Shown here: positions 429 through 23,233 of the stretch, in pieces
Numbering within the stretch: position 1 is the first letter of the stretch
Layout: each line of letters opens with the position of its first letter
Virus record (IMG/VR): IMGVR_UViG_3300025718_000181
Coordinates: 1-24,674 of that record
Length of the DNA stretch: 24,674 bases
Reading direction: 5' to 3' (one strand)
Source of the DNA: a virus
Taxonomy: Duplodnaviria; Caudoviricetes
Made by a program: the position numbers and the translations under genes
Notes under the pieces: generated by a model
Told to the model about the DNA's origin: nothing
What the model saw: the letters and a program-made list of their open reading frames with translations, nothing else
Databases searched by the model: none

Positions 429-3227
429 ATGAAAACTGAAGCAGAAACACGAAAAAAATTAATTGATGCAAAACTCTATGCTGCAGGCTGGGATGTAAAT
501 AATCTTACCCAGGTTTCACAAGAGTATGATATTTCCGTGCCCCTTCCAGATGGAGTGGCGGAGCCGCGAACACCTTATGAAGGGCATCAATATAGTGATT
601 ATGTTCTGTTGGGGAGAGATGGGAAACCTCTGGCTGTAGTTGAAGCTAAAAAGAGTTCCAAAAACGCTGCAATCGGCCGGGAACAGGCTAAACAGTATTG
701 TTACAACATTCAAAGACAAAATGGTGGCAAACTATCTTTCTGTTTTTATACTAACGGTCTTGAGATTCACTTCTGGGACTTGGAAAATTACCCTCCCCGA
801 AAAGTAGTCGGCTATCCAACACGAGATGATTTAGAGCGGTTTCAGTATATTCGAGATCATAGAAAACAACTTGCTGATGAGCTTATAAATACAGAAATTG
901 CAGGAAGAGACTATCAGATTCGGGCAATTCGTTCAGTAATGGAAGGAATTGAAAAGAAACAACGGAATTTTCTTTTGGTAATGGCCACGGGAACGGGAAA
1001 AACAAGAACATGTATTGCCCTTGTCGATGCGCTCATGCGTGCAGGACACGCAGAGCGGGTGTTATTTCTGGTGGACAGAATTGCTTTACGGGAACAGGCG
1101 CTGTCGGCATTCAAAGAACATTTACCCAATGAACCTCGTTGGCCAAAAGATGGCGAAAAGCTCATTGCTAAAGATCGTCGTATCTATATTTCAACCTATC
1201 CAACAATGCTCAATATTATAAGGGAAGAAGGGAACACTCTTTCACCCCACTTCTTCGATCTGATTGTGATTGATGAAAGCCATCGTTCTATATATAACAC
1301 CTACGGAGAAGTGCTTGATTATTTCAAAGCAATTAGTCTCGGGCTAACTGCAACTCCTACAGATATCATTGACCACAATACTTTCAAGCTTTTTAATTGC
1401 GATAATGGTCTTCCAACATTTGCCTATACATACGAGGAAGCAGTTAATAACATACCGCCCTATTTGTGCAACTTTCAGGTGATGAAGATACACACCAAGT
1501 TTCAAGATGAAGGTATCAGTAAGCGAACGATTTCCCTGGAAGACCAAAAACGATTGATCCTCGAAGGTAAAGAGGTAGAAGAGATCAATTTTGAAGGCAC
1601 CGAGCTGGAGAAAACTGTGGTCAATAGGGGAACCAATGCACTCATCGTCAAAGAGTTCATGGAAGAATCAATAAAAGATTCAAATGGTGTTCTCCCTGGT
1701 AAAACAATATTTTTCTGCACTTCAATATCCCATGCGAGAAGAATCGAACAGATTTTCGATTCTCTTTATCCTGAGTATAAGGGTGAACTGGCAAAAGTTC
1801 TGGTTTCAGATGACCCAAGGGTCTATGGCAAGGGCGGCCTCTTGGCGCAGTTTACTAATAACGATATGCCTCGCATTGCCCTTAGTGTCGGTATGCTAGA
1901 TACCGGAATTGATATTAGAGAATTGGTGAACCTTGTTTTTGCTAAACCTGTATATTCTTATACCAAGTTCTGGCAGATGATTGGTCGTGGCACACGACTT
2001 TTGGAATCACATAAAATAAAACCCTGGTGTACTGAAAAGGACAGGTTCCTTATTCTGGATTGTTGGGACAACTTTGAATATTTTAAGCTCAATCCCAAAG
2101 GCAAAGAACCTACAGCTCAAATTCCACTCCCTGTGCGTTTTGTCGGCATCAGGCTTGATAAAATTGAAAAGGCAATCGACATTCAAAACGATGCTATTGC
2201 CAAAAAAGAGATTAATAAGCTTCGAGAACAGATCCAGGGACTACCGCAAAATTCAGTGGTTATTCAAGAGTCGGGCACAGAATTACAAAAGATCGAAGAT
2301 GATAATTTCTGGACAAGATTGACTCATGAAAAGATTAAATTTCTACATTCTACTATTAAACCGCTTTTCAGAACGGTTTCACAAACTGATTTTAAGGCAA
2401 TGCGATTTCAGAAAGATCTTCTTGAAGTATCATTGGCAAGATTGGCTAATGAAAAAGATAAATTCGAAACATTAAAGGATAATATCGTCGAACTAATTGG
2501 TGAACTCCCGCTATCAGTCAATATTGTTGCTAGGGAAGAGGCTATCATTAGGCTTTCTCAAACAAATAGCTATTGGGCAAAGGCAACTGACGAAACATTT
2601 GATGAACTTGCAGAAAAGTTATCTGCGCTTATGAAATACCGAGATGATATTAATCAACCTCTGGGACCTGCTCAGTTTGACTTTATCGACTTGCTGAAAA
2701 CAAAAGAAATGGTGGAATTCGGGCCAGAACACTCGGCAGTGAGTGTATCCAAGTACCGTGAAATGGTAGAAAAACTCATCATGGAACTTACTGAGAGTAA
2801 CCCTATTTTGCAGAAGATAAAGGATGGAAAAGAGATTACCGAGGATGAGGCGCAGGCGCTTGCAACCCTATTACACGATGAGCACCCTAATATCACCGAG
2901 GATTTACTAAAAAATGTGTATAAAAACCGTAAAGCAAAGTTTATTCAGTTCATTAGACATATCTTAGGGCTCGAAGTACTGGAAAGTTTCCCTGAAACAG
3001 TTACTAGGGCATTTGACCAGTTTCTCCATAGCCATACTAACCTAAGTTCAAGACAACTGGATTTTCTAAATCTACTGAAAGAGTTTATACTGGTAAAAGA
3101 AATCGTGCAAAAGCGAGATCTGATAGAATCCCCCTTTACTGTATTGCATCCACAGGGAATCCGTGGCTTGTTTACCCCATCGGAAATCAAAGAAATTTTA
3201 GAAATGACAGCAAAGGTGGCAGCATAA
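429..3227 (+). CDS. hsdR: Type I restriction enzyme R subunit (EcoEI/EcoAI-like)
   Basis: N-terminal EAETR..LID..L..AGW, nuclease motif DYVL...PLAVVEAKK, RDYQ, Walker A MATGTGKT, IVIDESHRS, GLTATP, QMIGRGTRL; GGAG RBS at 421. Confidence 0.95.
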   Translation: MKTEAETRKKLIDAKLYAAGWDVNNLTQVSQEYDISVPLPDGVAEPRTPYEGHQYSDYVLLGRDGKPLAVVEAKKSSKNAAIGREQAKQYCYNIQRQNGGKLSFCFYTNGLEIHFWDLENYPPRKVVGYPTRDDLERFQYIRDHRKQLADELINTEIAGRDYQIRAIRSVMEGIEKKQRNFLLVMATGTGKTRTCIALVDALMRAGHAERVLFLVDRIALREQALSAFKEHLPNEPRWPKDGEKLIAKDRRIYISTYPTMLNIIREEGNTLSPHFFDLIVIDESHRSIYNTYGEVLDYFKAISLGLTATPTDIIDHNTFKLFNCDNGLPTFAYTYEEAVNNIPPYLCNFQVMKIHTKFQDEGISKRTISLEDQKRLILEGKEVEEINFEGTELEKTVVNRGTNALIVKEFMEESIKDSNGVLPGKTIFFCTSISHARRIEQIFDSLYPEYKGELAKVLVSDDPRVYGKGGLLAQFTNNDMPRIALSVGMLDTGIDIRELVNLVFAKPVYSYTKFWQMIGRGTRLLESHKIKPWCTEKDRFLILDCWDNFEYFKLNPKGKEPTAQIPLPVRFVGIRLDKIEKAIDIQNDAIAKKEINKLREQIQGLPQNSVVIQESGTELQKIEDDNFWTRLTHEKIKFLHSTIKPLFRTVSQTDFKAMRFQKDLLEVSLARLANEKDKFETLKDNIVELIGELPLSVNIVAREEAIIRLSQTNSYWAKATDETFDELAEKLSALMKYRDDINQPLGPAQFDFIDLLKTKEMVEFGPEHSAVSVSKYREMVEKLIMELTESNPILQKIKDGKEITEDEAQALATLLHDEHPNITEDLLKNVYKNRKAKFIQFIRHILGLEVLESFPETVTRAFDQFLHSHTNLSSRQLDFLNLLKEFILVKEIVQKRDLIESPFTVLHPQGIRGLFTPSEIKEILEMTAKVAA

Positions 3228-3228
3228 T

Positions 3229-4794
3229 TTGTTACAAAACAACTCAGCAATCAAAAGTAAAATTAGTCAACTATGGGATAAATTCTGGTCCGGCGGTATA
3301 TCCAATCCTCTGACCGCCATTGAGCAGATCACCTATCTGCTCTTTATGAAACGGCTAGATGATCTTGATCTGAAGCGGGTATCTGATGCCGAGTTCACAG
3401 GGGAACAGTACATTTCTAAGTTTGATGGAGAGTTTACGCTTCCCGGAACCGAACTACAAATTGATAAACAGACTCTTCGCTGGAGCCATTTTAAACGAAT
3501 GCCGGCTGAAGAGATGCTGTCTCATGTGCAGATTAAAGTATTTCCCTTCTTGAAGATGCTCAATGGGGATGAATCGCCCTTTACCCATCACATGGAGAAT
3601 GCAGTCTTTATTATCCCTAAGCCTTCTTTGCTGGTAGAAGCAATGTCCACGATTGAAGAGATATTTGTGGAGATCGAAAAAGATGCCAACGAGGGTGGTC
3701 AGGCGTTTCAGGATATCCAGGGAGATGTCTATGAAATGCTCCTCTCCGAAATTGCTTCAGCAGGAAAAAATGGACAGTTTAGAACACCACGACATATCAT
3801 CAAGCTCATTGCCGAACTTGTAGAACCACAACTGGGCAATCGGATTGCCGACCCTGCCTGCGGAACCGGTGGCTTTTTGCTCGGCGCTTACCAGTATATG
3901 GTGACGCAGCTTGATAAAAACAAGAAGTATCTCCAGCCCGACGAAGATGGTTTTATTCGCAATTCGGTGAGTGGCCTGCTGACGAAAAAGGTAAGTGATA
4001 TGCTCAATGACAGCCTGTATGGTTATGATATCGATGTGACCATGGTACGACTGAGCCTGATGAACTTAATGATGCACGGTGTGGACACTCCCCATATTGA
4101 TTATAAGGACACTTTGAGCAAAGGATTTACGGAGTCAAATCAATATCAGATCATTATGGCTAATCCGCCGTTTACAGGAAGTATAGACAAGGGGGATATT
4201 AACGAATCGTTCAAATTAGGGACTACCAAAACTGAACTCTTGTTCGTAGAGAATATTTACAATCTACTTAAAATGGGTGGAACAGCTGGAGTGATTGTGC
4301 CGCAGGGCGTTTTGTTTGGTAGTGGTAAAGCGTTTGTTGAAGCACGAAAAATACTTATTGAAAAATGCGAACTCAAGGCTGTTATCACTATGCCCAGCGG
4401 AGTATTTAAACCCTACGCCGGAGTCAGTACCGCCATATTAATCTTTACCAAGGGCGGTGAAACAGAGAATGTCTGGTTTTACGATATGCAAAGTGATGGC
4501 TATAGCCTTGACGACAAACGGGCCAAACTGGATGGGTATGGTGATCTGCAAGATATCAAAACGCAGTATAAAAAGCGGGATCAGAAGAAAGAAAGTGACC
4601 GTAAAGAAAAGTTTTTCTTTGTGCCCAAAGGTGAGATTGTAGCAGAAAACTATGATTTAAGCATGAGTAAATACAAAGAGGATGTTTTTGAAGAGGTTGC
4701 ATATGAAAAGCCGGCAGTGATTATTGATAGGCTTAAGACTATGGAGAGTGAGATTAATGCAGAGCTGACTGAGCTTGAGGGAATGTTCGGATGA
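3229..4794 (+). CDS. hsdM: Type I RM methyltransferase M subunit (m6A)
   Basis: GQFRTPRHII, motif I DPACGTGGF, motif IV NPPF; TTG start 1 nt after the hsdR stop. Confidence 0.95.
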   Translation: MLQNNSAIKSKISQLWDKFWSGGISNPLTAIEQITYLLFMKRLDDLDLKRVSDAEFTGEQYISKFDGEFTLPGTELQIDKQTLRWSHFKRMPAEEMLSHVQIKVFPFLKMLNGDESPFTHHMENAVFIIPKPSLLVEAMSTIEEIFVEIEKDANEGGQAFQDIQGDVYEMLLSEIASAGKNGQFRTPRHIIKLIAELVEPQLGNRIADPACGTGGFLLGAYQYMVTQLDKNKKYLQPDEDGFIRNSVSGLLTKKVSDMLNDSLYGYDIDVTMVRLSLMNLMMHGVDTPHIDYKDTLSKGFTESNQYQIIMANPPFTGSIDKGDINESFKLGTTKTELLFVENIYNLLKMGGTAGVIVPQGVLFGSGKAFVEARKILIEKCELKAVITMPSGVFKPYAGVSTAILIFTKGGETENVWFYDMQSDGYSLDDKRAKLDGYGDLQDIKTQYKKRDQKKESDRKEKFFFVPKGEIVAENYDLSMSKYKEDVFEEVAYEKPAVIIDRLKTMESEINAELTELEGMFG

Positions 4795-5999
4795 AAATAG
4801 TTAAGCTTGCTGAGGTTGTAAAAGAATTAGAATCTGGTACCAGACCAAAGGGCGGTGTTTCATCTGAAACAGGGACAATACCAAGTCTTGGAGCCGAACA
4901 TTTGTCAGAAGATGGCCGTTTTAACTTTCATAAGAATAAATTTATAACAACTGAATTTTTTAATAGTTTAAAGTCAGGAAAAATTAAATATAATGATATA
5001 TTGATTGTAAAAGATGGTGCAACTACAGGGAAAGTAGCCTTTGTTAAAAATGACTTCCCCTTTACTAAAGCTGCAATTAATGAACATGTATTCCGTATTG
5101 CTATTGACAAGCAAATTGGTTTTTCAAAATATGTTTATTTTTTCTTAAGATCATTAGGCGGTAAGAAACAGATACTTAATGACTTTCGTGGTGCAACTGT
5201 TGGAGGAATCTCACGTCAATTTATAGAGTCAACAAAGATTCCCCTCCCTCCCCTCGAAGATCAAATCCGTATTGCCGCCGTTCTCACTCGCACTGAAAAG
5301 TTGATTGCTAAACGCAAAGAGGGTATCAAGGCGTTGAATGAACTCTTGAAGAGTACTTTTATGGATATGTTTGGGGATCCGGTGATGAATAAGAAGAGGT
5401 GGGATGTAAAAACAGCAATTGATTATGCTGGTTGTATTGTGCCAGGAAGAGATAAACCGAAAAGTTTCTCTGTTGGTACTCCGTGGGTAACAACAAATGA
5501 TTTAGTCCATTTAGGATTTACAGAAAAATCAAAATCGGATATTGGCTTATCTGATGATGAAATTAAGGAAGTACGGGCTCGAGTAATTCCTCAAGGTAGC
5601 GTAATAATTACTTGTGTTGGGGATCTTGGTGTTGCAACATTAGCGAGGGTAAATATGGTTGTCAATCAACAATTGCACGCTTTCCAATGCCATAATTCAA
5701 TAAATAATATATTCTTCATGCATGCAATTTCTTTTCAAAAAGCATTTATGTACAAAAGAGCGACAAAGACAACAGTGCCATATATGAATAAGACGGTATG
5801 CAATAGTATTCCTATGATTTGCCCCCCACTCACCCTCCAAAACCAATTCGCTTCCATCGTCGAAAAAGTCGAATCTCTTAAAATAAAGTACACCCAAAGC
5901 CTCACCGAACTGGAAAACCTCTATGGCACGGTCAGTCAACGGGCATTTAAGGGGAAATTAGATTTGAGCAAGGTCCCGGTGGAAGAAGTAAACCAGTAA
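4791..5999 (+). CDS. hsdS: Type I RM specificity subunit S
   Basis: Two TRDs each followed by the conserved repeat (KIPLPPLEDQIRI / PMICPPLTLQNQF), central MFGDP motif, C-terminal QRAFKGKL; ATGA overlap with the hsdM stop. Confidence 0.95.
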   Translation: MKIVKLAEVVKELESGTRPKGGVSSETGTIPSLGAEHLSEDGRFNFHKNKFITTEFFNSLKSGKIKYNDILIVKDGATTGKVAFVKNDFPFTKAAINEHVFRIAIDKQIGFSKYVYFFLRSLGGKKQILNDFRGATVGGISRQFIESTKIPLPPLEDQIRIAAVLTRTEKLIAKRKEGIKALNELLKSTFMDMFGDPVMNKKRWDVKTAIDYAGCIVPGRDKPKSFSVGTPWVTTNDLVHLGFTEKSKSDIGLSDDEIKEVRARVIPQGSVIITCVGDLGVATLARVNMVVNQQLHAFQCHNSINNIFFMHAISFQKAFMYKRATKTTVPYMNKTVCNSIPMICPPLTLQNQFASIVEKVESLKIKYTQSLTELENLYGTVSQRAFKGKLDLSKVPVEEVNQ

Positions 6000-7216: not shown

Positions 7217-7259
7217 TTCTTAGCACTTTTATTGCTTGATAAATAAAGAGGTGATCATA

Positions 7260-7478: not shown

Positions 7479-7483
7479 GCGTC
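7443..7483 (+). repeat. Diverged direct repeat, copy 2
   Basis: 33/41 nt identical to 6077-6117; overlaps the last 12 codons of ORF 7260-7478. Confidence 0.8.
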
Positions 7484-7503
7484 CTTGACTGGGAGGTAAT
7501 ACT

Positions 7504-7827
7504 CTGAAAAAAGTATATAAACTACTGTTTCTTTTCTGTGCTTTAAACATGGTGGATTATCTAACAACCATGCTATTAATAAGTTATGGGGGGGGAGAAG
7601 GAAATCCAATATCGAATTACTTTGTAGGCAATAATGCGCTACATTACTTCAAGATAGTCGGAGTTGGCTTAGTTTGCATCTACCTAATTCATGTAGCTAA
7701 GAGGAATCTGAAGAGTCAGTTGAGCGTGATTAGGGTGCTGTTGGCGACAAATTTGGTATTTAGTTTCATTGCTGTTTCTAACGTAGTTGTGTATTTTGTA
7801 CAGAAACATGATCTGGTGCTGAGATAA
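7504..7827 (+). CDS. Small multi-pass membrane protein, DUF5658-like
   Basis: DYLTT...GGGEGNP motif and hydrophobic segments. GGGAGG RBS at 7491-7496 precedes an in-frame CTG at 7504 (MKKVYKLLFLFCALNM...), 15 codons before the ATG at 7549. Confidence 0.6.
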   Translation: MKKVYKLLFLFCALNMVDYLTTMLLISYGGGEGNPISNYFVGNNALHYFKIVGVGLVCIYLIHVAKRNLKSQLSVIRVLLATNLVFSFIAVSNVVVYFVQKHDLVLR

Positions 7828-7851
7828 AGTACAATATAAGAAATCTTCTTT

Positions 7852-7883
7852 CCCTATACTCATGAAGTATAGGGCCTTTTTTT
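7852..7883 (+). terminator. Intrinsic terminator
   Basis: CCCTATACT-CATGA-AGTATAGGG, then CC and 7 T. Confidence 0.7.
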
Positions 7884-8073
7884 ATCGTCAATTCACTTTT
7901 CCGCCATGTTTCGCCGTCAATTAGGACTATAGTTGTCTGCAAGGAGCTTTTGCGAGGTGGTGGATAAGGGTAAGGGTAAGGCAGTTTCAATATGGTTAAG
8001 AGTTAGAAACATATTTTTGTCTAGGGTTGGTGGTATAGTTATATTCAGGGAAATAAAGGGAGGTATTGTAAGG

Positions 8074-8466
8074 ATGAAATACTTCGGACAAGATGAATTG
8101 CATATATTAGCAGAATGTTATGACTGCGGTAGAGTTCTTAAAATGAAAAGAGTAAACTTAACTGCAAACGAATTTGGCTTTAACATTAACCCAAATCCAA
8201 AATGTCCCTGTGGTAGGGCGTGTTTAACGATTGAAGGAAGTCCTCCATATAAATATACACCAACTATTGTTTCTACTAAGGATATACAGTTGAAATGTCC
8301 TAAATGTAAATCAACCAACCTTACTGCAAACAACAAAGGATTTGGATTAGGAAAAGCCGCTGTGGGAGGAATATTACTGGGGCCTGTTGGATTACTTGGA
8401 GGACTATTTGGTAGTAAAAAGCCAGTATTCATTTGTTTGAATTGTGGCAATCAATTTGAAAAGTAA
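8074..8466 (+). CDS. Zinc-ribbon / glycine-zipper protein of the type common in prophage accessory modules
   Basis: GGAGG RBS before ATG 8074 (preferred over 7933); CYDC, CPCG, CPKC and CLNC motifs flanking GFGLGKAAVGGILLGPVGLLGG; TG-G-TATAGT extended -10 at 8031-8039. Confidence 0.7.
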   Translation: MKYFGQDELHILAECYDCGRVLKMKRVNLTANEFGFNINPNPKCPCGRACLTIEGSPPYKYTPTIVSTKDIQLKCPKCKSTNLTANNKGFGLGKAAVGGILLGPVGLLGGLFGSKKPVFICLNCGNQFEK

Positions 8467-8477
8467 AGGGGATTATT

Positions 8478-8804
8478 ATGAAAACATTTCTTCAAATCAC
8501 GGGGGTTTTTTCTGCAATCTTATTCATAGTTGCTGGATTTCTACTATTAGATATCAAGTCAGTATCAGGCGATTCAATAGCAGAAAGTTTTTATCATGGA
8601 GTAGGCTGGATGTCGTTTGGCTTTGGATTATTGTCAGGTGGATTACTTATTGGATTCTCAGAGAAATTTGAAGACACTGTAATGATTTTAGATCGAGAAA
8701 ATGAAAACCCACCGATTGAAATTGATCAAGTTAAAACTGCAACTTCTGGAAATATTGCAAGTGATATGGTTAAAGACATAAAGGGGATTTTTAGTTCGAA
8801 ATAA
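8478..8804 (+). CDS. Hypothetical membrane protein with two TM helices
   Basis: AGGGGG RBS; two hydrophobic stretches (about residues 5-24 and 41-60) and an acidic C-terminal tail. Confidence 0.7.
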   Translation: MKTFLQITGVFSAILFIVAGFLLLDIKSVSGDSIAESFYHGVGWMSFGFGLLSGGLLIGFSEKFEDTVMILDRENENPPIEIDQVKTATSGNIASDMVKDIKGIFSSK

Positions 8805-8945
8805 ATCCTTGTAAGAATGTTGATATTGGGTTTCAAATCTATAAGGCAAATAACTAGTATAACATGATAGAGCAACATACTTCTGGCAGCCAAAAGCATT
8901 TATAAATAATTTTATGGGATATTAAGGGGAATTGGCAGATATTTC

Positions 8946-9003
8946 TGATATAATAAAAAGAAAGTTCTCGAACTGAAGGTTAATCTTTCAGTTCTTTTAT
9001 TAT
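8946..9003 (+). promoter_or_regulatory. Extended -10 promoter plus terminator-like leader hairpin upstream of the RNA polymerase gene
   Basis: TG-A-TATAAT at 8946-8954; GAACTGAAGG-TTAAT-CTTTCAGTTC-TTTTATT at 8970-9001 directly before the GGGGGT RBS. Confidence 0.55.
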
Positions 9004-9018
9004 AGGGGGTCAACATAG

Positions 9019-12000
9019 ATGAAGGCCAAACAGATTAAAATATATAGCTTTGGAAGATCATGCATTGAAGATGGGGTAATCACTTCCGGCAACTTGGAGG
9101 ATAATGAAGTAGCATTATCAGAAAGCTTTCTCACAATCGCTCTCGAATGTTACAAAAATATGAAGCTAGAAGATGGACAACTGGTAGATGAAATAATAAA
9201 GGTGTTGCTCCCTAATACAGAGGAAAAGGCAAAAGAAGAATGGGATCAGGGATTAGTTCTTAACGACAAGGTATATTTTGCTTGGTTTGCAACCCCAGGC
9301 GGTATGAAGCAAGAGAAAGCAATGGGTAAGTGCGAAACTTTCTTTATAAGGGAAGACTTTTGCAGTTTCGCTACAGAATTTGAGGATCTAATTTCTTTAG
9401 GTAAATTCAAGGAGATAGAAGATAGCAAAGAAGAGATATGCATAAATAAGGACGTTCTCAGCCGTCTCTCTTTAGGGGTTAGTAGTTGTCATGTGGCGGG
9501 TAATATGCCTGATCTAATTGTTTTACCACAGCCGCTTTATAAAATCATTAAGGATTATAAGACTATAGAAAAGTTCATGGATCAGGTTGAAGATAAAAAA
9601 GGCAAAATGGTAGACCAAGTAGATTATAAATTGGTAGATTATCATTTCGATAAAGATATTGACGTATTTGATGGAGGAGCAATTGCCACTCCAAAAGTGT
9701 TTAATCAGATTCAAAATGAACTTGGATTAGACTATCCTATTGAGTTTGCAATTATCAGAGGCTATGGGATCGGCATAAAAGGCATGATCACCAAGTTCAA
9801 TATCATTAAATACTTGAGTGTTTTCCACAAAGGGGATACCGAATATTGCAAGAAAGTGGATGATAAGTTTTATTTGCTGGACATGTGGCATGAGTGGCAG
9901 CTGGTAACTCAAAACACAATGCTCTTAAATGAGTCGATGGTGAAGCTAGCAAAGTATTATAAACCTGAAAATAGTGAGAACATGGATACTTATCTAACAA
10001 GGGTTGCTAATGTAGACCCTAAATATAAAGACATAATCGGAAAGCTATACGTCACAAAGGTCAATAAAAGAGATGAGGATATTGAGGACTATAGAAGATT
10101 GAATTATCAATTGCTTACGGCCCTGGCATTGAGCAAAAAAGATTATTACGAATTAATCAAAGAGGACGTAAAGGTATTTAGAAAGATCTTAAAACCATTC
10201 TCGAAAGACAGCGAAAAAGATGAATGGCTTATAAATATTGATACCATAAGACTATTCTTTAAAAATATTATAAAAAGCAATGATGATGAGAGCGAGGAGT
10301 TTCAAGAGGAAGCTGTGAATATGGCGGGTAATGTGGTCACAAAATGTGAAGAACTCCTCAATGTATCCGAGGAGTTTATCTACCTGAAATTTGTTAAGAA
10401 TAATTTAGCAAAGCTTATCGAAAAGAAATGCCGCGAACTCGCCTGTGGTAAGGTTACGGAAAAAGCAAGATATCAATATATTGCAGTTGATGCAATTAGC
10501 TATATGAATTTTGCTATGAATCGAGATCAGGGAGAAAATGGACTTAAAGCAGGAGAATTTTATTGCGCCGATTACAATGACGGAGAAATTAGAACTATCT
10601 CAAGGAATCCCCTGTGTGCATATAGTGAAGTCCACAATGTTGGATTTGCTAAAAATGCTTTCCTTGATAACTATTTTAGTCCTTGCCGAGAACTTATATA
10701 TTTTAATAATAAAAGTGATATTTTAGCATTGCTGAGTAGCGCAGATGAAGATGGAGATTCTTGCACCGTCATAGATTCAGATATTATCAGAGCGGCAGTG
10801 GTAACTCCCGAAGACGGTAAGTATTTCATCAATAAAGATGATGGACATAAAGAATTAATGGTTTATAATCCGGAAAATAGATTCCTAGCAACCTATAGAG
10901 CATCGGGGAATCTAATAGGGAAGATTGCTTTAAAGAGTGCCAGTATTAACTCAAATAGTCAGCAAACATATGATTATTACGATATAGCTAATGCCAAATT
11001 CATTCTGAATATGGGCTTGGATGAGGAAGATAAGAAACTAGCCAAAGAAAACATAGATAGTGGTGAATGGATTACAACCTATAAAGCCAGTGAGCAACAT
11101 AGGGAGCATATTAAACAAAGATTCTATGAAAATGAGAAGGACATTTATGTTGTTCTCTATAATGCCATGGTATCCATCGATGCCCCTAAGACATTGTATT
11201 TTCCAAGCCCTGAAGATATGGAAATTATTAATAAGAAGTATGGGAGGAAAGCGAAATTCCTACAGTATAAGGAAAATAAAAGCGAAGTCAACGATAAGCA
11301 TTATGTTTATACGTTTGGGCTGTTAGATAGTATTGCGCGTTTAATTCAAAAGAAACTGTTGAACGAAATCAATGGAATAATCACCAAGTTTGATAATAGA
11401 GCGGAGTTGATACAAGGTAAATTATTAAATGGCGATTATAGTGTCGCTGACTATCCCTTGTGTTTAGAAGAAATCGAAAAGCTCTATAAAGGTTACACGG
11501 AAGAAAGACAAGCAGTCAATAAGGAATGTTATTCGGAAATGAAGAAAGAAACCAAACGTAGGGATTGGGCAATAGAAAATTCGTCTTGGAGTCAATGGGA
11601 AGAAAGCGAATATGATGCATCGATAGCGGCTTTCAAATCTGTGAAGTACAAGCAGTATAAAGAAATTGATGCTAAGTACATTGTGGCTGCGGGTGAGATC
11701 CTCAAGAAATATGATATCGTAACTATTTCAAACGCTATTGGAAATCTCAAGAATTGTACTGAAGATTTCATTATCAATTTATTCTTCCCTGTCTTCAGCT
11801 ACTTGAATGTTAAGCTCCAGAATAGCCGATATGTCTATAATAAAGCGGGAGACGGCGACATTACTTATCTCTATGAAAAATATAAGAAGATACAAGTTGA
11901 AGCCATAGATAATAGTGATATAGTGAAAAACTTACATCTGGAAGAAAAGGTTAGGTTAAAGGTAATCGATGTCAAGGTGGATGTACGAGCCAGGGTCTTG

Positions 12001-12249
12001 GATGACGAAGTTGTGGAATTGATTGAATCAGAATTACAGGATAATGGTCAGGTCGTTTTTGATATAAAGGTATTGGACAATAAAGTGATCTTGGTCAAAG
12101 ATGAAAAGGATATGTTAGAGGTATTCAATGACTTTATACAGATCAAAGAGTATAGCTTGCTGAATTGCAACACTATAAAATTCGAGATATTAGTGAATGT
12201 AGCTCCCAGTGGGAAAAGCTTAAAATTAACGGCAACTGAAATAACTTGA
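9019..12249 (+). CDS. Single-subunit two-barrel RNA polymerase, YonO-like / cellular RdRP-family homologue
   Basis: RdRP-family motifs in the expected order: FDGG (~218), IRG....IKGM (~247-256), SRNP (~528-531), catalytic-loop SADEDGD (DxDGD, residues 576-580, nt 10744-10758), GNLIGKI, IDAPKT. Confidence 0.85.
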   Translation: MKAKQIKIYSFGRSCIEDGVITSGNLEDNEVALSESFLTIALECYKNMKLEDGQLVDEIIKVLLPNTEEKAKEEWDQGLVLNDKVYFAWFATPGGMKQEKAMGKCETFFIREDFCSFATEFEDLISLGKFKEIEDSKEEICINKDVLSRLSLGVSSCHVAGNMPDLIVLPQPLYKIIKDYKTIEKFMDQVEDKKGKMVDQVDYKLVDYHFDKDIDVFDGGAIATPKVFNQIQNELGLDYPIEFAIIRGYGIGIKGMITKFNIIKYLSVFHKGDTEYCKKVDDKFYLLDMWHEWQLVTQNTMLLNESMVKLAKYYKPENSENMDTYLTRVANVDPKYKDIIGKLYVTKVNKRDEDIEDYRRLNYQLLTALALSKKDYYELIKEDVKVFRKILKPFSKDSEKDEWLINIDTIRLFFKNIIKSNDDESEEFQEEAVNMAGNVVTKCEELLNVSEEFIYLKFVKNNLAKLIEKKCRELACGKVTEKARYQYIAVDAISYMNFAMNRDQGENGLKAGEFYCADYNDGEIRTISRNPLCAYSEVHNVGFAKNAFLDNYFSPCRELIYFNNKSDILALLSSADEDGDSCTVIDSDIIRAAVVTPEDGKYFINKDDGHKELMVYNPENRFLATYRASGNLIGKIALKSASINSNSQQTYDYYDIANAKFILNMGLDEEDKKLAKENIDSGEWITTYKASEQHREHIKQRFYENEKDIYVVLYNAMVSIDAPKTLYFPSPEDMEIINKKYGRKAKFLQYKENKSEVNDKHYVYTFGLLDSIARLIQKKLLNEINGIITKFDNRAELIQGKLLNGDYSVADYPLCLEEIEKLYKGYTEERQAVNKECYSEMKKETKRRDWAIENSSWSQWEESEYDASIAAFKSVKYKQYKEIDAKYIVAAGEILKKYDIVTISNAIGNLKNCTEDFIINLFFPVFSYLNVKLQNSRYVYNKAGDGDITYLYEKYKKIQVEAIDNSDIVKNLHLEEKVRLKVIDVKVDVRARVLDDEVVELIESELQDNGQVVFDIKVLDNKVILVKDEKDMLEVFNDFIQIKEYSLLNCNTIKFEILVNVAPSGKSLKLTATEIT

Positions 12250-12281
12250 TCATTAAGTTGGATTTGACTCTACTTGTTCTT

Positions 12282-12304
12282 GTGGGGCTTCCAGCCCCAC
12301 TTTT
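12282..12304 (+). terminator. GC-rich hairpin / probable terminator after the RNAP gene
   Basis: GTGGGGCT-TCC-AGCCCCAC followed by TTTT. Confidence 0.6.
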
Positions 12305-12353
12305 GTGGAATAGTGATAGTGCTATTACTACAATGGAGTAGGAGGTCAGCAAT

Positions 12354-12542
12354 ATGAACCATGATGATACAATGGTTATAACTCAAGAAAGAATGGCAGG
12401 TTGGCTTATGTTTAATAGGTTTCATAAACTAAATGAGAAGCCAGACTTGAAGGATTCAAATAGAAAAATATTTATCTTTAAGGATTCACTAATACTGCGT
12501 GAGACTATGGAGAAATATAACCAATTCAAAGAGTTGGTCTAA
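12354..12542 (+). CDS. Small phage-associated protein, DUF5659-like
   Basis: AGGAGG RBS; pattern VITQERMAGWLM...KPDLKDSNRKIFIFKDS recalls DUF5659; 15 nt upstream of the helicase gene. Confidence 0.7.
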   Translation: MNHDDTMVITQERMAGWLMFNRFHKLNEKPDLKDSNRKIFIFKDSLILRETMEKYNQFKELV

Positions 12543-12557
12543 TACTGGAGGATCATA

Positions 12558-14753
12558 ATGGATGGAGTTCAAAACAAAAAGATTATAATTGAGAGCTTCG
12601 AATACAAACGTGAATATGCCCAAAAGACTACTGCTAACGGAACAACATATCTTGATGGTAATAACTATGAATACTGGTCACGAGACATTGCAGTTTCGTC
12701 TCTAAAGCCTGAACAGATTGTAGACATAAATGATGAGATACAAGCCTTTGCCCAAGAAACTCAAGATAAATTTAGTGGACTATTTGATGCCAGACATAAT
12801 AAAATTTCACAGGGCCAAATAACATTTAGCTATGATGCAACAATGAGTATCCTCGGACAGGTAATAAACCCTGACAAAATTACAATTATTCCTGCAAAGG
12901 CCGGCTTTGGGAAATCAAGTTATATTTACTCCTTCCTGAGTACCCTTTGCAAACATATTCTTAGTGGTGCAGACAGTAAGTTCTCAAAGCAAGGCGTTAT
13001 TATTGTTACTGATAAAATTGAAGCACTAAGACAACTTGAAAAAGATATTTATAAGGATCAAGGCTTTTACAGCAAAGGAAAGCATAATACAAGGTACACT
13101 TATATCCTGGAAGCATGGAATAAAAACTCTGCTAGGGATGGAATCTGTAAAAATCCTGCTATCGAATCCTATGAGTATGGAATGTGCAGTCCAATTGAAT
13201 GCCCATATTTTAATAAATGTAAAATGAGTTACCAAAAACAAAAACAAGTTTTCAGCCCAATTCTGCTTATGACTAATGCCAGACTAAAACAATATCAAGA
13301 TAGAATCGACGAGTACAAAACTTGGATTGATAGTGAAAGAAATGAACACGTAAGAGATATCGTAATCATTGATGAAAAGCCCATTATAATAGATAACTAT
13401 AGGATTGATACGCAATTATTCTCCACTTTAAAAAAGACTGTTGAAGAAACAAAGACAAACGGAACGGATGCCACAATCACCAAGGAGCATCTTCTAAATG
13501 AAATTCATAAAGTGGAAACTGAAGTATTAGAACTCAGAAAAGAAGTAAGCCAATTTAGAAATTGTATTTGCTGTGGGACAAAAGAAGCAGTTTTTACTGA
13601 AGAATTCAGAGGCCGATGGCAGAGTATTATTGGCTTCAAAAATGTAGACTTATTAAATGCAGTAGAAAAGATGTTTATGCAGGGATCATTATGGTGTAAT
13701 ACTGATATTCCATTTTTCAAAACACTTGGAATCAAGAATTTTCATTACGCTGGCTTCAAGACATATATCTTTGATGCTACTGCTGAACTTGACCCTGATT
13801 ATGAAGATGAAAGATTCCAATTTTTAAATATTGAGGATTATAAGAACTATGAGAATATTACTTTTCATATCTTCAAGGCAAAAGAAATGAACATGAGCCG
13901 AATTGCTCTCAATATTAAAAAGAATGCTTGGAAAAACTTAGCGGTCGCTGAATGGATCAATAATAAATTTACTGATAAAACCTATGTGGTAACTTATAAG
14001 GCAAATGCAAAGTTTATTTCACAGAACTTGAAGAATCTGGGTACTCTCATATTCCTTGACAAAGGTGAAGAGAAAATTGTGATTCCTCATTTTGGGGACA
14101 CCAGGGGGAGTAATGAATTCAAGGATGCAAAGAGCATGGTTCAAATCGGATGGAACAGATCTCCATCCGATGAGTACCTAGCCCAGTGTCTAAGCAGAAA
14201 CACTACATTTGAAAAATTAATGGAGTACAAGGAAGATAAAGCTGAAAGAACTGCAAAACTATTTGAGAATGTAAATGGTCGATTTACACAATATGATGAA
14301 GTCAATATTTACATGTGGCGTAAAATGGCGGTAGAATTTGAACAGGAAGTATTCAGAACATGTGTAAGGGATTTTTCTGCAGATGAGCCTGTTGATATTT
14401 ACATATTTAAGCCAGATGGTAAAGTTATCGAACTTATACAACAACGATTCAAGAAATGCAGGGTACTGAGCGATTATAATGTTCCAGAAGAATTTCAACA
14501 GGAAAAAATACTGGGAAGGCAGACTCCAGATGGTAATGATAATAAAATACAGGCATATGTAAAATGGCTTAAGAATGAATGGGATGGTGGTTCAATCAGC
14601 CTAAAAGAGATTAAGAGCAAGTTTGAGATAAGCGATAAATATTGGGAGAAACTTATAAGAAATCAAGTGGTAACTGATATCAGGTCAAAACGCAATATTA
14701 AAATAAAAAGAGAAGGTAAGGGTAGTAATCAGGCTTATTATTGGTATATCTAA
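12558..14753 (+). CDS. SF2-like (DEAD/DEAH-related) helicase / putative replication protein with a Cys cluster
   Basis: Walker A PAKAGFGKSS, Walker B VIIDEKP, motif III-like FDATA, HFGDTRGSNEF, motif VI-like EQEVFRTCVR; C-x12-C-x4-C-x5-C between Walker A and B; basic HTH-like C-terminus. Confidence 0.75.
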   Translation: MDGVQNKKIIIESFEYKREYAQKTTANGTTYLDGNNYEYWSRDIAVSSLKPEQIVDINDEIQAFAQETQDKFSGLFDARHNKISQGQITFSYDATMSILGQVINPDKITIIPAKAGFGKSSYIYSFLSTLCKHILSGADSKFSKQGVIIVTDKIEALRQLEKDIYKDQGFYSKGKHNTRYTYILEAWNKNSARDGICKNPAIESYEYGMCSPIECPYFNKCKMSYQKQKQVFSPILLMTNARLKQYQDRIDEYKTWIDSERNEHVRDIVIIDEKPIIIDNYRIDTQLFSTLKKTVEETKTNGTDATITKEHLLNEIHKVETEVLELRKEVSQFRNCICCGTKEAVFTEEFRGRWQSIIGFKNVDLLNAVEKMFMQGSLWCNTDIPFFKTLGIKNFHYAGFKTYIFDATAELDPDYEDERFQFLNIEDYKNYENITFHIFKAKEMNMSRIALNIKKNAWKNLAVAEWINNKFTDKTYVVTYKANAKFISQNLKNLGTLIFLDKGEEKIVIPHFGDTRGSNEFKDAKSMVQIGWNRSPSDEYLAQCLSRNTTFEKLMEYKEDKAERTAKLFENVNGRFTQYDEVNIYMWRKMAVEFEQEVFRTCVRDFSADEPVDIYIFKPDGKVIELIQQRFKKCRVLSDYNVPEEFQQEKILGRQTPDGNDNKIQAYVKWLKNEWDGGSISLKEIKSKFEISDKYWEKLIRNQVVTDIRSKRNIKIKREGKGSNQAYYWYI

Positions 14754-14873
14754 TTGGTTTGTGTTTATGGGATACCCCATAATCCTTATATATATTAGTA
14801 GAGAATAGTAGGGAGCACAAGAATATATTACCAAATTTACAGTAATGCTACGAATTACAAAGGGGTGATTTAA

Positions 14874-15585: not shown

Positions 15586-16827
15586 ATGGAATTCAAAAAA
15601 ATAAACATCTTAGCCTTAAAACATGCTGAGTATAATCCCAGAAAAGATTTAAAGCCTGGGGATAAAGAATTTGAGAAAATCAAGAACAGTATTAATGAAT
15701 TCGGCTACTGTGATCCTATTATTTTGAATGCTGATCTAACAATTGTTGGAGGCCATCAGAGAGCAAAGGTATTAAAAGAGTTAGGCTACACTGAAATTGA
15801 CTGCGTTATTATTGATATTGATAAAACAAAAGAGAAAGCGCTTAATGTTGCTCTAAATAAAATCTCAGGAGAATGGGACTTTGAATCATTAGCAAAGTTA
15901 CTGGATGACCTGAAAACAGAGGATTATGATATTGAACTGAGTGGCTTTGATATGAAGGAAGCTGAAAAGCTATGGGATGAATACATGCCAAAGGATGTGC
16001 AGGATGAAGAAGAACTTCCTGATGTGCCAGAGGTGCCGGTTATTCAACCAGGAGATATCATTCTGTTGGGTAAGCACAGGCTGATATGTGGTGATGCTAC
16101 TAAGGTAGAAGATCTGGAGAAATTGATGGATGGGAAGAAGGCAAAACTTACTGTACTTGATCCTCCCTATGGAATTTCATATGTTGGGAAGACGGATGAT
16201 GCTTTGACAATTCAAAATGATAATTTGAGTGATGAAGAATTCTATAATTTCCTTCTTGAAGCTTTCAAGAGAATTTATGAAATATCTGCTGATGGAGCCA
16301 GTAGTTATATATTTCATGCTGATGCTAAAGGTTTGATATTCAGGAAAGCATTTGTTGATTCAGGCTTCAAACATTCACAATGCTGTATTTGGGTTAAAAA
16401 TACCTTTGTCATGGGAAGGCAGCCCTACCAGTGGCAGCATGAACCAGCTTTATTCGGATGGAAACCTACAGGAGCACATTATTGGAATGGTGACAGAAAG
16501 CAGACTACAATATGGAACTTTGATAGACCAAGAGTTAATGATGTTCATCCTACAATGAAACCTATTCCGCTTATCGAATATATCATCAAGAACTCCAGCA
16601 AGTATGGTGATATTGTTGTGGACACTTTCCTTGGCAGTGGGACAACTTTACTAGCATCAGACAATACAGATAGAATTTGCTATGGCTCAGAGCTTGACCC
16701 AAAATACTGCCAGGTTATCATTGAACGCTGGATTAATTATAAGGATGGAATCAATGGTGATGATGTAATAATTGAAAGAAATGGACAGCAATATAAATAT
16801 TCAAATTTAAAGGTTGAGCAGGAATAG
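15586..16827 (+). CDS. Phage ParB-N-domain DNA methyltransferase (N4-C/N6-A, beta class)
   Basis: ParB/Srx-like YNPRK...IVGGHQR; catalytic DPPY, HPTMKP and SAM-binding DTFLGSGTT; AAAGGAG RBS. Confidence 0.92.
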   Translation: MEFKKINILALKHAEYNPRKDLKPGDKEFEKIKNSINEFGYCDPIILNADLTIVGGHQRAKVLKELGYTEIDCVIIDIDKTKEKALNVALNKISGEWDFESLAKLLDDLKTEDYDIELSGFDMKEAEKLWDEYMPKDVQDEEELPDVPEVPVIQPGDIILLGKHRLICGDATKVEDLEKLMDGKKAKLTVLDPPYGISYVGKTDDALTIQNDNLSDEEFYNFLLEAFKRIYEISADGASSYIFHADAKGLIFRKAFVDSGFKHSQCCIWVKNTFVMGRQPYQWQHEPALFGWKPTGAHYWNGDRKQTTIWNFDRPRVNDVHPTMKPIPLIEYIIKNSSKYGDIVVDTFLGSGTTLLASDNTDRICYGSELDPKYCQVIIERWINYKDGINGDDVIIERNGQQYKYSNLKVEQE

Positions 16828-18721: not shown

Positions 18722-19318
18722 ATGGGAGCAAGAGGTAAAAATAATACTAAGTGGTTAACCAATGTTTTTCCCCGTTTATCTGAGATTCGAGACTGGTGCA
18801 TGAAGGGTAAAACCAATGAAGAAATGTGTGTGCTTTTAGGCATAAGTCCAGACAGTTGGTACACTTATATGAAGGAACATAATGAGCTAAATAACATCGT
18901 TACAGCAGGGAAGTCTGTTATAGATAACCGTGTAGAAAATGCAGTTTTGAAAACTGCCCTTGGTTTTGAATATGAAGAAATCAAAACAATTTTAGAAGAA
19001 GATCATAATGGCAAAAAAAGAACAAGGATTGAGAAAACCAAAAAGTATATGCCACCTAACCCGACTGCTCAAGCTTTCTGGCTAAAGAACCGTAAGAAGG
19101 ATGAGTGGGGCGATAGGAAAGAGATTGTCTTTGATACAAAGGGCCAGGAGGAAGAAAGAAAGCTGCAATTTCTTAAAATGATAAATGAAGAAGTCATTGA
19201 TGCGGATTATTCTATTGTTGAAGAAGATGCTGTTATGACAGGCCCTGAAGTTATAGAGGAGACAGAAGAAGGTTTTATTGAGGATGATCACTTTGGTAAA
19301 GAAACAATTGAAGCATAA
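18722..19318 (+). CDS. Terminase small subunit-like protein
   Basis: N-terminal HTH (GKTNEEMCVLLGISPDSWYTY), VENAVLKTALGFEYEE and PPNPTAQAFWLKNR motif seen in Bacillota phage TerS-like proteins; acidic tail; upstream of terL. Confidence 0.75.
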   Translation: MGARGKNNTKWLTNVFPRLSEIRDWCMKGKTNEEMCVLLGISPDSWYTYMKEHNELNNIVTAGKSVIDNRVENAVLKTALGFEYEEIKTILEEDHNGKKRTRIEKTKKYMPPNPTAQAFWLKNRKKDEWGDRKEIVFDTKGQEEERKLQFLKMINEEVIDADYSIVEEDAVMTGPEVIEETEEGFIEDDHFGKETIEA

Positions 19319-19479: not shown

Positions 19480-20328
19480 ATGCTTGATTTAGGCAATTTC
19501 GAGGTGTATCTCACAAACAAGGAACTGAGCCTGAATACCATCAGCTGCTATATTCGGGACAGCAAGGTTTTTATGGATTGGTTCGGAAGCAGAACGGATT
19601 GTGGATTGGATAGACTGATCCAACTCGATGCCATTGGATACAAGAAGCATCTGCTCAATATCAATAAATCAGTAGTGACAGCCAATAGGAAGGTCGCAAG
19701 CGTCAATGCCTTATGCAAATGGCTTTATGATAGCGGATCAACAGTTGATGAGATCAATATAAAGGCAGTGAAGAGTCGGGAGGCTCGGCAATATAAAGGC
19801 TTGGAGGAAAAGGATCTAAGGAAGCTTCGAGCAGAGATACATCGAAATCGCAATCCACTTCATATATGCATCATTGAGATACTCCTGGGCACAGGGCTTC
19901 GGGTGAGTGAACTATGCAATCTAAAGCTTCAAGACATAGAATTATCCGAGCGTAAAGGCACAATCAAAGTCATTGGCAAAGGAAACATATACAGAACATT
20001 GCCACTTAATAAGGATGTTCGCAAAGCAATCCAAGATTACGCTGATACAAGAACTGAAAATGATAGTGACTTCTTATTGATAGGACAGCGAGGAGCATTT
20101 AAACGGAACGCAATCAACTTAATCCTTGAAAAGTATGGGCAAAGAGTGGCAGTAGATGTAACCCCACACCGGCTCAGACATTCGCTAGGATATAGCCTAG
20201 TCAAGGCAGGAACAGCCATAACGACCATTCAGGAAATCTTGGGTCACGAAAGTATAATGACAACGAATTTATACACCGTCACAACTGAACAGGATAAGGT
20301 AGAGGCTCTGGAAGCCTTGGAGTGGTAA
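19480..20328 (+). CDS. Tyrosine recombinase, XerC/D-like (no arm-binding domain)
   Basis: Core-binding N-terminus (LSLNTISCY), catalytic motifs GLRVSE, GKG, PHRLRH, LGH, TNLY; 282 aa. Confidence 0.93.
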   Translation: MLDLGNFEVYLTNKELSLNTISCYIRDSKVFMDWFGSRTDCGLDRLIQLDAIGYKKHLLNINKSVVTANRKVASVNALCKWLYDSGSTVDEINIKAVKSREARQYKGLEEKDLRKLRAEIHRNRNPLHICIIEILLGTGLRVSELCNLKLQDIELSERKGTIKVIGKGNIYRTLPLNKDVRKAIQDYADTRTENDSDFLLIGQRGAFKRNAINLILEKYGQRVAVDVTPHRLRHSLGYSLVKAGTAITTIQEILGHESIMTTNLYTVTTEQDKVEALEALEW

Positions 20329-21590: not shown

Positions 21591-21619
21591 AACTATTGTC
21601 ATTAAGGGAAGGAGGCTCT

Positions 21620-23233
21620 ATGCAGCCATCACAGGAAATACAACAAGACCATGACCGCCAAAATCTCCTGCTAAAGCGATATCTGAATAAATACTTCTCC
21701 CCGACCAAGATAGAAGAACTTGTCGGGGAGTTTTCATTTTCAGAGCTACGTAAATTACTTGGCGAGATGGATTTAGAATTTTTTAGCTTATGCTACTTTC
21801 CTAAATACTTTGATCGTAGATTTGGGGAGTTTCACTTAGAGCTATTCGAGGAACTGAAATACATGCTGGACAACAAAGGGTTGATTGAAGCTTTTGGATT
21901 ACCAAGGGAACATGGCAAAAGCACAATCAACTCTTTTTTATTTCCGCTGTATTCAACACTCTACAATAAATCTCAGTTTACATTAATAATATCAGCAACA
22001 GAGCAGATTGCTCTACCCTTCCTTGATATGATAAAGGATGAGCTTGAAACTAATGAGTTACTGATGGAAGACTTCGGTATTCAAAAAGGAAACCGCTGGA
22101 ACAATAATGAAATATGGATAAGGGGTAAGGGTGGCATTGATGCATGTATAATGATTCGTGGTATTGATGGTTCACTAAGAGGCATCCACTTCAAGCAATT
22201 TAGGCCTCAGCTTGTTCTATTGGATGATCTTCTTAAGGATGATACTGCAAAATCAGAAACAAAGCGTGAGCAAGTTAAAAATACATTTACAGATGTAGTA
22301 ATTCCAATCGGGACGAGAGATACAAATATACTAGTTGTCGGCACGTGCTTACATGAGGAAGATCTGATGACTGACCTGCTTAAGGGGAAAATACCTGGGG
22401 TCAGAAGCATAAAGAAAGCGGCAGTCATATGCTTTGCCGAACGAGACGATTTATGGAGTGACTGGGAAGCCAAATATAATAATCTACTGGACTTGGACAG
22501 GATTAAAACTGCCAAGTCTTTTTTTTATGACCATCAGGAGGAAATGCTGGAAGGAACAGAAATATTGTGGTCAGAGTATCTTGATTACTATTATCTAATG
22601 TGCAAGAAACAGGCAATGGGGGACAAATCCTTCTATAAAGAAATGCAAAATGATCCCCGCAGCACTGATGACTACATATTTCGGGATATTCAATATTGGG
22701 ACAGACTTCCTGGATTTGAAGAAATGGAACTCGTGATGTACATTGATCCTGCAATTAAAGCTGGTAAAAGGAATGACTTCTCTGCAATAACAATTCTCGG
22801 ACTTCATAGAAAAACTAAGCAAAAGTATGTTGTCGATGGCAGTATATATAAATTACTTCCCGATGATCTGTTTCAGGTAGCTATAGAAAAATTACAGCAA
22901 TATCCGGTTGAGAAGATTGGATTTGAAACTACAGCAGCGCAAAGCTATATCAAGCAGAAGTTTGAAGAGGAACTCTGGAAGAACAAGATATTTACTCCTG
23001 TCGATGAAGTAATAAGTAGAGGCCAGAAGCATGAGAGAATTATATCTTTAGAACCGGAAGTTAAGAAGGGGCATATCCTATTCAACCCTGGTAATATCAG
23101 GTATAATAATCAGGTAAAAGATTACAACAAAGGTGCTAAACATGATGATGCTCCTGACTCATTATATGGCGCAGTTCAGTTGGTTCAAGGGGTAAAGAGC
23201 ATTAGGTTTTATGATAGGAGTTTGTTGTTCTGA
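21620..23233 (+). CDS. terL: Phage terminase large subunit
   Basis: Walker A LPREHGKST, Walker B LVLLDD, VVGT, EMQNDP, nuclease YIDPA and HDDAPDSL; GGAGG RBS favours ATG 21620. Confidence 0.92.
   Translation: MQPSQEIQQDHDRQNLLLKRYLNKYFSPTKIEELVGEFSFSELRKLLGEMDLEFFSLCYFPKYFDRRFGEFHLELFEELKYMLDNKGLIEAFGLPREHGKSTINSFLFPLYSTLYNKSQFTLIISATEQIALPFLDMIKDELETNELLMEDFGIQKGNRWNNNEIWIRGKGGIDACIMIRGIDGSLRGIHFKQFRPQLVLLDDLLKDDTAKSETKREQVKNTFTDVVIPIGTRDTNILVVGTCLHEEDLMTDLLKGKIPGVRSIKKAAVICFAERDDLWSDWEAKYNNLLDLDRIKTAKSFFYDHQEEMLEGTEILWSEYLDYYYLMCKKQAMGDKSFYKEMQNDPRSTDDYIFRDIQYWDRLPGFEEMELVMYIDPAIKAGKRNDFSAITILGLHRKTKQKYVVDGSIYKLLPDDLFQVAIEKLQQYPVEKIGFETTAAQSYIKQKFEEELWKNKIFTPVDEVISRGQKHERIISLEPEVKKGHILFNPGNIRYNNQVKDYNKGAKHDDAPDSLYGAVQLVQGVKSIRFYDRSLLF

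Follow-up and report, generated by a model that had tools for sequence, protein, structure and literature searches.

Does a single-chain RNA polymerase encoded by a phage-like element transcribe the element's genes or prime its replication, and where on the DNA would it start? The question is raised by a 24,674-nucleotide stretch of viral DNA (Duplodnaviria; Caudoviricetes; IMG/VR record IMGVR_UViG_3300025718_000181, positions 1 to 24,674), the whole of which we refer to as the window. An open reading frame (ORF) within it is open throughout and translates to 1076 amino acids (aa). An original prediction, made from the sequence alone, had read this ORF as an enzyme of the YonO/cellular RNA-dependent RNA polymerase (RdRP) family that transcribes the packaging genes of the element; it did not touch on the replication cassette headed by the enzyme, the lack of a primase match in elements of this clade, or the conserved hairpin site behind the gene. 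We find that the ORF is, by its predicted structure and conserved residues, a YonO/QDE-1-type two-barrel polymerase with a complete catalytic residue set. Judged from sequence and modeling, the chances are slightly in favour of its being the element's own DNA-dependent RNA polymerase, which would start at a conserved hairpin and transcribe the replication and packaging genes downstream.

The structural model of the polymerase, built on 73 of 117 sequences, reached a pLDDT of 90.8 and a pTM of 0.83. Its best PDB match is QDE-1 (E 1.5e-15, Z 22.1, 658 residues aligned at 14% identity), followed by RDR2 (Z 21.2), with weaker matches to the polymerases of Thermus and crAss-like phages (Z 13.5 for P74 gp62, 9.5, and 8.6), and the best-matching viral models are phage proteins named RdRP. 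Residues 1-968 align with QDE-1 and residues 481-593 with isolated double-psi barrels, and the predicted fold contains two double-psi barrels in one chain. Aligned with hhalign, the polymerase alignment matches SPbeta YonO at 97.9% (E 6.3e-13, 496 columns, 22% identity). The structural match to QDE-1 and the profile match to YonO together bear out the family assignment.

All motifs named in the original prediction are in their places and in the expected order: FDGG at residue 217, IRG at 246, KGM at 254, SRNP at 528, DEDGD at 576-580 (codons at 10744-10758), LIGKI at 632, and IDAPKT at 720. Across the 73 of 117 proteins that form the alignment, D218, R247, K254, G255, D578, D580, D721, and K724 are invariant, and R529, P531, D576, and G579 are conserved in at least 90%. 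Eight residues are described as invariant across two-barrel enzymes, with the QDE-1 residues listed (PMC2919709). Mapped by motif order and the YonO alignment, all eight are present (D218, R247, K254, R529, P531, D576, D578, and D580), and D218, R247, and K254 read, by motif order, as the counterparts of QDE-1 D709, R738, and K743. One earlier suggestion did not hold, namely that the glutamate at position 577 may mark a distinct clade, as this position is simply variable. Only four of the 117 proteins carry E (P0001, P0003, P0110, and P0114), a relative with 92% identity carries C, and the residues T, C, F, A, S, K, and Q all occur frequently. The motif reads DFDGD in 40 of 203 full-length relatives, DTDGD in 34, DCDGD in 27, and DEDGD in nine, with no pattern match in 13; SPbeta YonO has DNDGD, with N at the equivalent position.

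We found 116 homologues at about 28-92% identity among 8000 scored candidates; those with a taxon name are Bacillota, the nearest being from Desulfosporosinus (84% identity), and a profile search returned 1130 representatives at E <=0.001. The sequencing runs that match the window best are metagenomes from peat, which may be its source sample, and no RNA run is among those listed; the element is taken to belong to a soil bacterium. Twelve records of annotated GenBank phages matched the polymerase, nine of them at 21-24% identity (E <1e-4), and no close relative was found among these phages. Searches of the protein against Pfam, PHROGs, NCBIfam, and PDB sequences gave no useful match (one weak Pfam match was to CDC37_M). 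The polymerase itself does not match the Pfam RdRP family (PF05183), and four of six closer relatives and 30 of 44 distant ones score above its cut-off. The alpha/beta domain at the C-terminus, beyond the part shared with QDE-1, is a candidate DNA-recognition domain. It has no Atlas match, and the corresponding region in the 44 distant relatives holds no Pfam domain except two weak PRC-barrel matches. Its strand order looks HIRAN-like, but neither the Atlas nor Pfam (for the 44 relatives) gave such a match, and we leave the domain unassigned.

Two-barrel polymerases are a known family (PMC5467207, PMC2919709, PMC7824862), and YonO of Bacillus phage SPbeta is the sole biochemically tested bacterial member that we met in the available text of the literature found. 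It is a strict DNA-dependent RNA polymerase that is required for late genes, is processive, and strongly prefers DNA templates (PMC5467207). YonO and the window polymerase have in common the single chain, the two double-psi barrels, the catalytic set, and the temperate phage context. YonO, however, has 839 aa and lacks the extra C-terminal domain, and it is encoded in a 134-kb phage before the gene for HU, whereas window-type polymerases are found in records of 25-43 kb and are followed by a small gene and then a helicase or initiator gene. By eye, no hairpin-GTGGA site of the kind described below was recognised after yonO in SPbeta. The gap between yonN and yonK (L225:2653-4335), 1.7 kb without genes that holds the published YonO start, also shows no such site by eye. 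The closest structural matches, QDE-1 and RDR2 (PDB: 7y7p, 2j7n, 7w84), are eukaryotic RNA interference RdRPs, whereas the window polymerase belongs to a bacterial phage-like element. The polymerases of Thermus phages P23-45 (gp64) and P74-26 (gp62) with gp96, and the virion RNA polymerase of crAss-like phage phi14:2, are also single-chain two-barrel phage RNA polymerases, but they are much more distant and come from lytic phages; the window protein groups with the RdRP/YonO branch.

The polymerase is the first gene of a cassette; behind it come a small DUF5659-like gene and then an exchangeable gene for a helicase or initiator. We surveyed 52 loci, a set that contains the window and in which some loci are represented in more than one collection. 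In 41 of them, a helicase or initiator-like gene follows shortly 3' of the polymerase, usually with a gene of 55-100 aa in between; of the remaining loci, five stop at a contig edge, four carry truncations or deletions, and two are different. The isolate Clostridium algifaecis DSM 28783 (L008) carries an intact element. In the window, the second gene encodes a 62-aa protein, a relative of which scores above the Pfam cut-off for DUF5659, a domain on which we found no literature. The third encodes a DinG-like protein with two RecA-like domains, superfamily 2 (SF2) motifs, and a predicted XPD-type fold, as expected of an SF2/XPD helicase. Its Walker A GxGK, DE, and Q..R...R motifs are invariant in 15 aligned rows, some of which lack the Cys cluster, and its model (pLDDT 84.6) best matches CasDinG, XPD, and DinG in the PDB (E 3e-12). 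It has no match in Pfam, PHROG, or NCBIfam and no primase domain, and its alignment gave no useful match among PDB sequences; a single-sequence search recovered four close loci.

Elsewhere, the product of the third gene is a phrog_16 SF2 helicase, a member of either of two further families (weak initiator and helix-turn-helix (HTH) matches were obtained for one of them), a D5/SF3 helicase in which Pfam shows no primase domain, or a fusion of the AEP-like primase-SF2 type. On a quick tree of 38 polymerases these types are scattered, with 15 changes (minimum six, shuffled mean 18.1). The fusion occurs in a distant lineage (L141:1291-7878, also L096 and L111) whose polymerase carries DFDND, matches phrog_8308, and groups with YonO on long branches; in L141, the genes that come next encode an HTH protein, a DUF5659-like protein, and a 905-aa AEP-like primase-SF2 helicase, in the same chassis. 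PC4-like genes often lie 5' of the polymerase in relatives.

Two chassis carry the cassette. One consists of tailed prophages of 33-42 kb; the other, to which the window belongs, has the order defence cargo, cassette, ParB-methyltransferase, small terminase, recombinase, large terminase, and then SPP1-type portal, capsid, and serine recombinase. Sister elements share the downstream ParB-methyltransferase and terminase block but are Bacillota prophage islands with a single-strand binding protein, PolA, primase, VRR-NUC, SNF2, and a phrog_36 regulator instead of the polymerase cassette. We compared this slot in loci fetched by terminase (66) and by methyltransferase (the best 80 of 332). Among 47 methyltransferase loci with at least 6 kb upstream, the slot holds the polymerase cassette in 12 and a primase module in 35, the latter almost always including SNF2 and in most cases PolA, VRR-NUC, and the phrog_36 regulator. 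The cassette occupies the slot where the sisters hold PolA, primase, SNF2, and a sigma-region-4-type regulator. Two sisters (G014 and G015) have the primase module before the window's own terminase type (76%) and portal, with no polymerase match. A whole-record search of 50 records found the regulator at full length in all 19 sister records (best E <=5e-10) and in none of the 31 polymerase records, where three weak partial matches occurred (7.5e-7, 6e-4, and 6e-4); it is absent from all nine polymerase records that are at least 90% complete. The two groups are largely two lineages, so that these counts reflect few evolutionary events and not 50. That polymerase-bearing elements lack a regulator carried by every sister record indirectly supports transcription of the packaging genes by the polymerase.

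Behind the polymerase stop codon lies the conserved hairpin site, which consists of an 8-bp stem around a TCC loop (GGA on the minus strand), four T, and then GTGGA. Hairpins with a T-N-C loop occur in 21 of 56 distinct gaps, compared with 2.65 in shuffles (maximum seven), and the TCC loop is flanked by seven different, perfectly paired 4-bp stems, which covary. In several relatives, the small hairpin is nested in a longer branched structure, and the common denominator across relatives is a hairpin, a short spacer, and RYGGA; a strict GNA-triloop definition was abandoned, as it fails in several clades. A refined scan was restricted to intergenic sequence, with five truncated or split loci (L013, L014, L018, L020, and L021) excluded from training. 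At a score of 14 it recovered 14 held-out copies, which are spread over 11 of 50 loci and all share the strand of the genes; the 33 control loci gave none. Four of the copies lie just before the polymerase and ten at 1.3-6 kb after it. Further copies in relatives stand 5' of the polymerase gene and after the helicase, with up to three per element at gene heads on one strand, and copies within one element are alike (mean rank 3.8 of 15, where 8 is expected). A second polymerase clade of 1130-1180 aa, with about 25% identity and in the same chassis (L073:4211-7711; also L100, L106, L132, L135, L156, L158, and L193), has its own GAA-loop hairpin, which is repeated after the helicase in several loci.

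The layout of the site recalls the promoters of the phage N4 virion RNA polymerase, in which a template-strand hairpin has a three-base loop closed by a sheared G:A pair, the stem bases are free if paired, and four A act as a ruler before the start (PMC4496689). The window site has the same layout on the minus strand, and the GNA triloop and four-A spacer are found in the window's clade; unlike in N4, however, clades differ in the loop, and bulged forms have a longer spacing. The N4 enzyme is T7-like and unrelated to the window polymerase, and the likeness is an analogy.

We propose that host RNA polymerase would make the polymerase mRNA from an upstream host-type promoter and would tend to stop at the hairpin and T-tract. 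The new enzyme may then recognise the hairpin, probably extruded on the template strand, and start near the GTGGA box (about 12305 if the N4 analogy holds), transcribing the DUF5659-like and DinG-like helicase genes. By read-through, or from the further site copies in relatives, it could go on to transcribe the methyltransferase-terminase-portal-capsid block and, as the complementary distribution suggests, do the job of the sisters' sigma-region-4-type regulator. The extended -10 box (8946-8954) in the polymerase leader was read by eye and is not among the sites listed by the promoter scan. Hairpins resembling the one that follows it (8970-8994) are visible by eye in close relatives such as L001, L002, L010, L014, L015, and L026, and this leader hairpin possibly attenuates polymerase expression.

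We favour a transcriptase because YonO does such a job (PMC5467207), the late regulator is missing where the polymerase is present, the third gene can be exchanged, and the position of the site resembles that of a promoter. The swapping of the third gene is easier to reconcile with a polymerase that transcribes any gene placed behind it than with a primase adapted to a single helicase. A distant lineage that has both a polymerase with an intact DFDND and an AEP-like primase-helicase also counts for transcription.

Several observations weigh against the transcriptase. The site occurs only once in the window and is separated from the portal by six terminator-like hairpins (15523, 17280, 18676, 20318, 20349, and 23874; another, at 16286, is inside the methyltransferase gene), so that late transcription in the window must rely on read-through or on a further promoter. 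On the template strand, the loop departs from GNA in some cases (TCT, ATCC, and TACC are found), and in one clade a GAA loop lies on the plus strand and the T-tract is missing. The trained profile recovered the site in only 34 of 51 gaps; a score of 12 gave 18 sites, compared with three in controls (p 0.05), a looser first scan was unspecific (93 control matches), and the p-values for the site are optimistic because the loci are related and partly duplicated. The polymerase-free sisters with the very same packaging genes are only G014 and G015, which are near-identical. The phrog_36 proteins are presumably late activators of the RinA/ArpU kind; one of four matched the ArpU model TIGR01637 (E 0.01, below the cut-off), and three of four gave weak matches to sigma-70 region 4. 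The AEP-bearing lineage is distant (E about 1e-16) and lacks the hairpin site. Finally, the cassette replaces both the replication genes, primase included, and the regulator.

This last point leads to the best-surviving alternative, which we regard as a real but clearly less probable possibility: the polymerase would lay RNA primers or form an R-loop at the hairpin, which would be an origin that the DUF5659-like protein and the helicase open and from which host DNA polymerase extends. The cassette sits exactly in the PolA-primase-SNF2 slot of the sisters, and no primase was found among 127 annotated proteins from four polymerase records; matches to a VapE-type primase model were obtained in 16 of 19 sister records and in none of the 31 polymerase records. 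D5/SF3 helicases are usually fused to a primase, and two loci (L125 and L133) pair the polymerase with a D5/SF3 helicase lacking one among its Pfam matches. The sole lineage with a primase is the distant one without the hairpin site, and the idea of a primase role for such enzymes is put forward in PMC3417536. The helicase partner is freely exchanged, however, the distant lineage keeps its polymerase together with an AEP-like primase, and at most three site copies per element, at gene heads and on one strand, look promoter-like. YonO, moreover, is processive and transcribes late genes (PMC5467207), and priming leaves the missing late regulator unexplained. Priming and transcription may also coexist. 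A bolder version, which we hold to be doubtful and a shade less probable than priming as such, is sigma-free initiation at an extruded hairpin, convergent with N4, in which the same start would open the operons and supply the replication primer.

Less probable still is that the polymerase transcribes late genes from a promoter elsewhere and that the hairpin acts as a host terminator or attenuator, or else binds the DUF5659-like protein. The hairpin with its T-tract matches the pattern of a terminator, the CCAC-T4-GTGG part is palindromic, as a binding site might be, and the DNA folding energies are equal on both strands (-9.3 and -9.4); the differences in the loop between clades and the absence of a recognised site after yonO fit this as well. 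A plain terminator, however, would not need the conserved bases beyond the T-tract, one clade has no T-tract, and the site is missing from the 33 polymerase-free controls at a score of at least 14.

An RNA-templated polymerase akin to the eukaryotic silencing RdRPs is very unlikely: the closest solved folds are QDE-1 and RDR2 and many relatives pass the Pfam RdRP cut-off, but the gene belongs to a DNA element that also encodes a helicase, a terminase, and a portal, and YonO strongly prefers DNA templates (PMC5467207). That the gene is inactive or decayed, as the truncated or split relatives (L013, L014, L018, L020, and L021) might suggest, is the least probable reading of all, given its full length, its eight invariant residues, and its 116 homologues.

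Table 1. Features of the window that bear on the polymerase, its cassette, and the surrounding element.
Feature	Position	Strand	Basis
Type I restriction-modification cargo (hsdR, hsdM, hsdS), upstream of the cassette	429..5999	+	Pfam
Polymerase leader: host-type extended -10 box, then terminator-like hairpin	8946..8998	+	Sequence, terminator scan
Single-chain two-barrel (YonO/QDE-1-type) RNA polymerase, 1076 aa (predicted)	9019..12249	+	Predicted fold, structure search, profile alignment
First-barrel catalytic residues D218, R247, K254	9670..9780	+	Invariant in alignment
Second-barrel R529, P531, and aspartate triad D576/D578/D580	10603..10758	+	Motif positions, alignment, double-psi-barrel match
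C-terminal alpha/beta domain, about residues 968-1076	11920..12249	+	Beyond the end of the QDE-1 alignment (968)
Conserved hairpin site, candidate polymerase start	12282..12310	+	Gap sequences, shuffles, profile scans
DUF5659-like protein, 62 aa, cassette gene 2	12354..12542	+	PF18903 E 0.005 (below cut-off); phrog_31546 E 9e-17
DinG/XPD-like SF2 helicase, 731 aa, cassette gene 3	12558..14753	+	Motifs, model, PDB structure matches
ParB-domain DNA methyltransferase, first core gene past the cassette	15586..16827	+	Pfam, PHROG
Terminase small subunit	18722..19318	+	phrog_309 E 2e-36
Tyrosine recombinase, between both terminase genes	19480..20328	+	PF00589
Terminase large subunit	21596..23233	+	phrog_38 E 2e-93
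SPP1-type portal, cut off by the contig end	23932..24674	+	PF05133 E 3e-52

The element around the cassette has features of its own (Table 1). Tape-measure genes are found in none of 17 window-type records, compared with nine of 11 other polymerase prophages, the records being fragments. Window-type elements are possibly short-tailed phages or tail-borrowing satellites; capsid-forming PICI satellites have their own capsid and packaging genes but no tail genes and use helper tails. Related loci (G001, G002, and G003 (L052-L059), and L079-L140) encode portal, scaffold, capsid, and adaptor-like proteins, a serine recombinase, and one further protein of about 385 aa (phrog_16444), which is shorter in G003. 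A gene for a tRNA/rRNA uracil-5-methyltransferase (PF05958) lies upstream of the cargo at the upstream ends of L004, L013, and L018; such genes are common integration sites, and this one is a likely integration site.

Cargo spans 429-7216, 14874-15383, 17239-18651, and 20538-21590 of the window and comprises, by Pfam, the type I restriction-modification system, a HARE-HTH protein, a 2H phosphoesterase, a Schlafen/AlbA_2 protein, and a GNAT fusion; relatives carry other restriction-modification systems, ToxN, and HNH proteins. At 15523, 18676, and 23874, terminator-like hairpins, whose stems vary, stand directly before the methyltransferase, small terminase, and portal genes, as in many relatives, where they flank slots for exchangeable cargo; 18 such hairpins were found, compared with 8.9 in shuffles. 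A strongly conserved intergenic stretch of 160 bases before the tyrosine recombinase (19320-19479), with a repeated CTTATGT-containing motif, is possibly a recombination (resolution) or packaging site. Two 44-base copies with 80% identity (6077-6120 and 7443-7486) each close an ORF-like stretch with a hairpin, and the 80-aa gene at 7236-7478 may have a paralogue, not called as a gene, at the first copy. There are no Rfam matches or tRNA genes in the window, and the largest repeat families listed for 6000-24674 include neither long exact repeats nor iterons.

In the literature searched, with subscription papers and the YonO supplements (PMC5467207) outside its scope, we found no description of the cassette, the module swap, or the site. 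Among bacterial proteins, YonO-like enzymes stand closest to the RNA-silencing polymerases, and they serve as a model for a single-chain ancestor of cellular RNA polymerase. The available text of PMC5467207 leaves open the promoter sequence of YonO and the way in which such enzymes find a start site, and the hairpin would be the first testable promoter for the family. Whether they transcribe or prime has so far been argued from context, as in the available text of PMC3417536. At this locus, a candidate site of roughly 30 bases, for which compensatory variants exist in nature, is combined with a compact cassette and with naturally occurring sister elements that have or lack the polymerase, so that both questions become testable at the bench. 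A sigma-independent single-chain polymerase with a short promoter is also a possible orthogonal expression tool for Bacillota. If the bolder version of the hairpin start were true, one 1076-aa enzyme and a hairpin would replace the primase and the late regulator of the sister phages.

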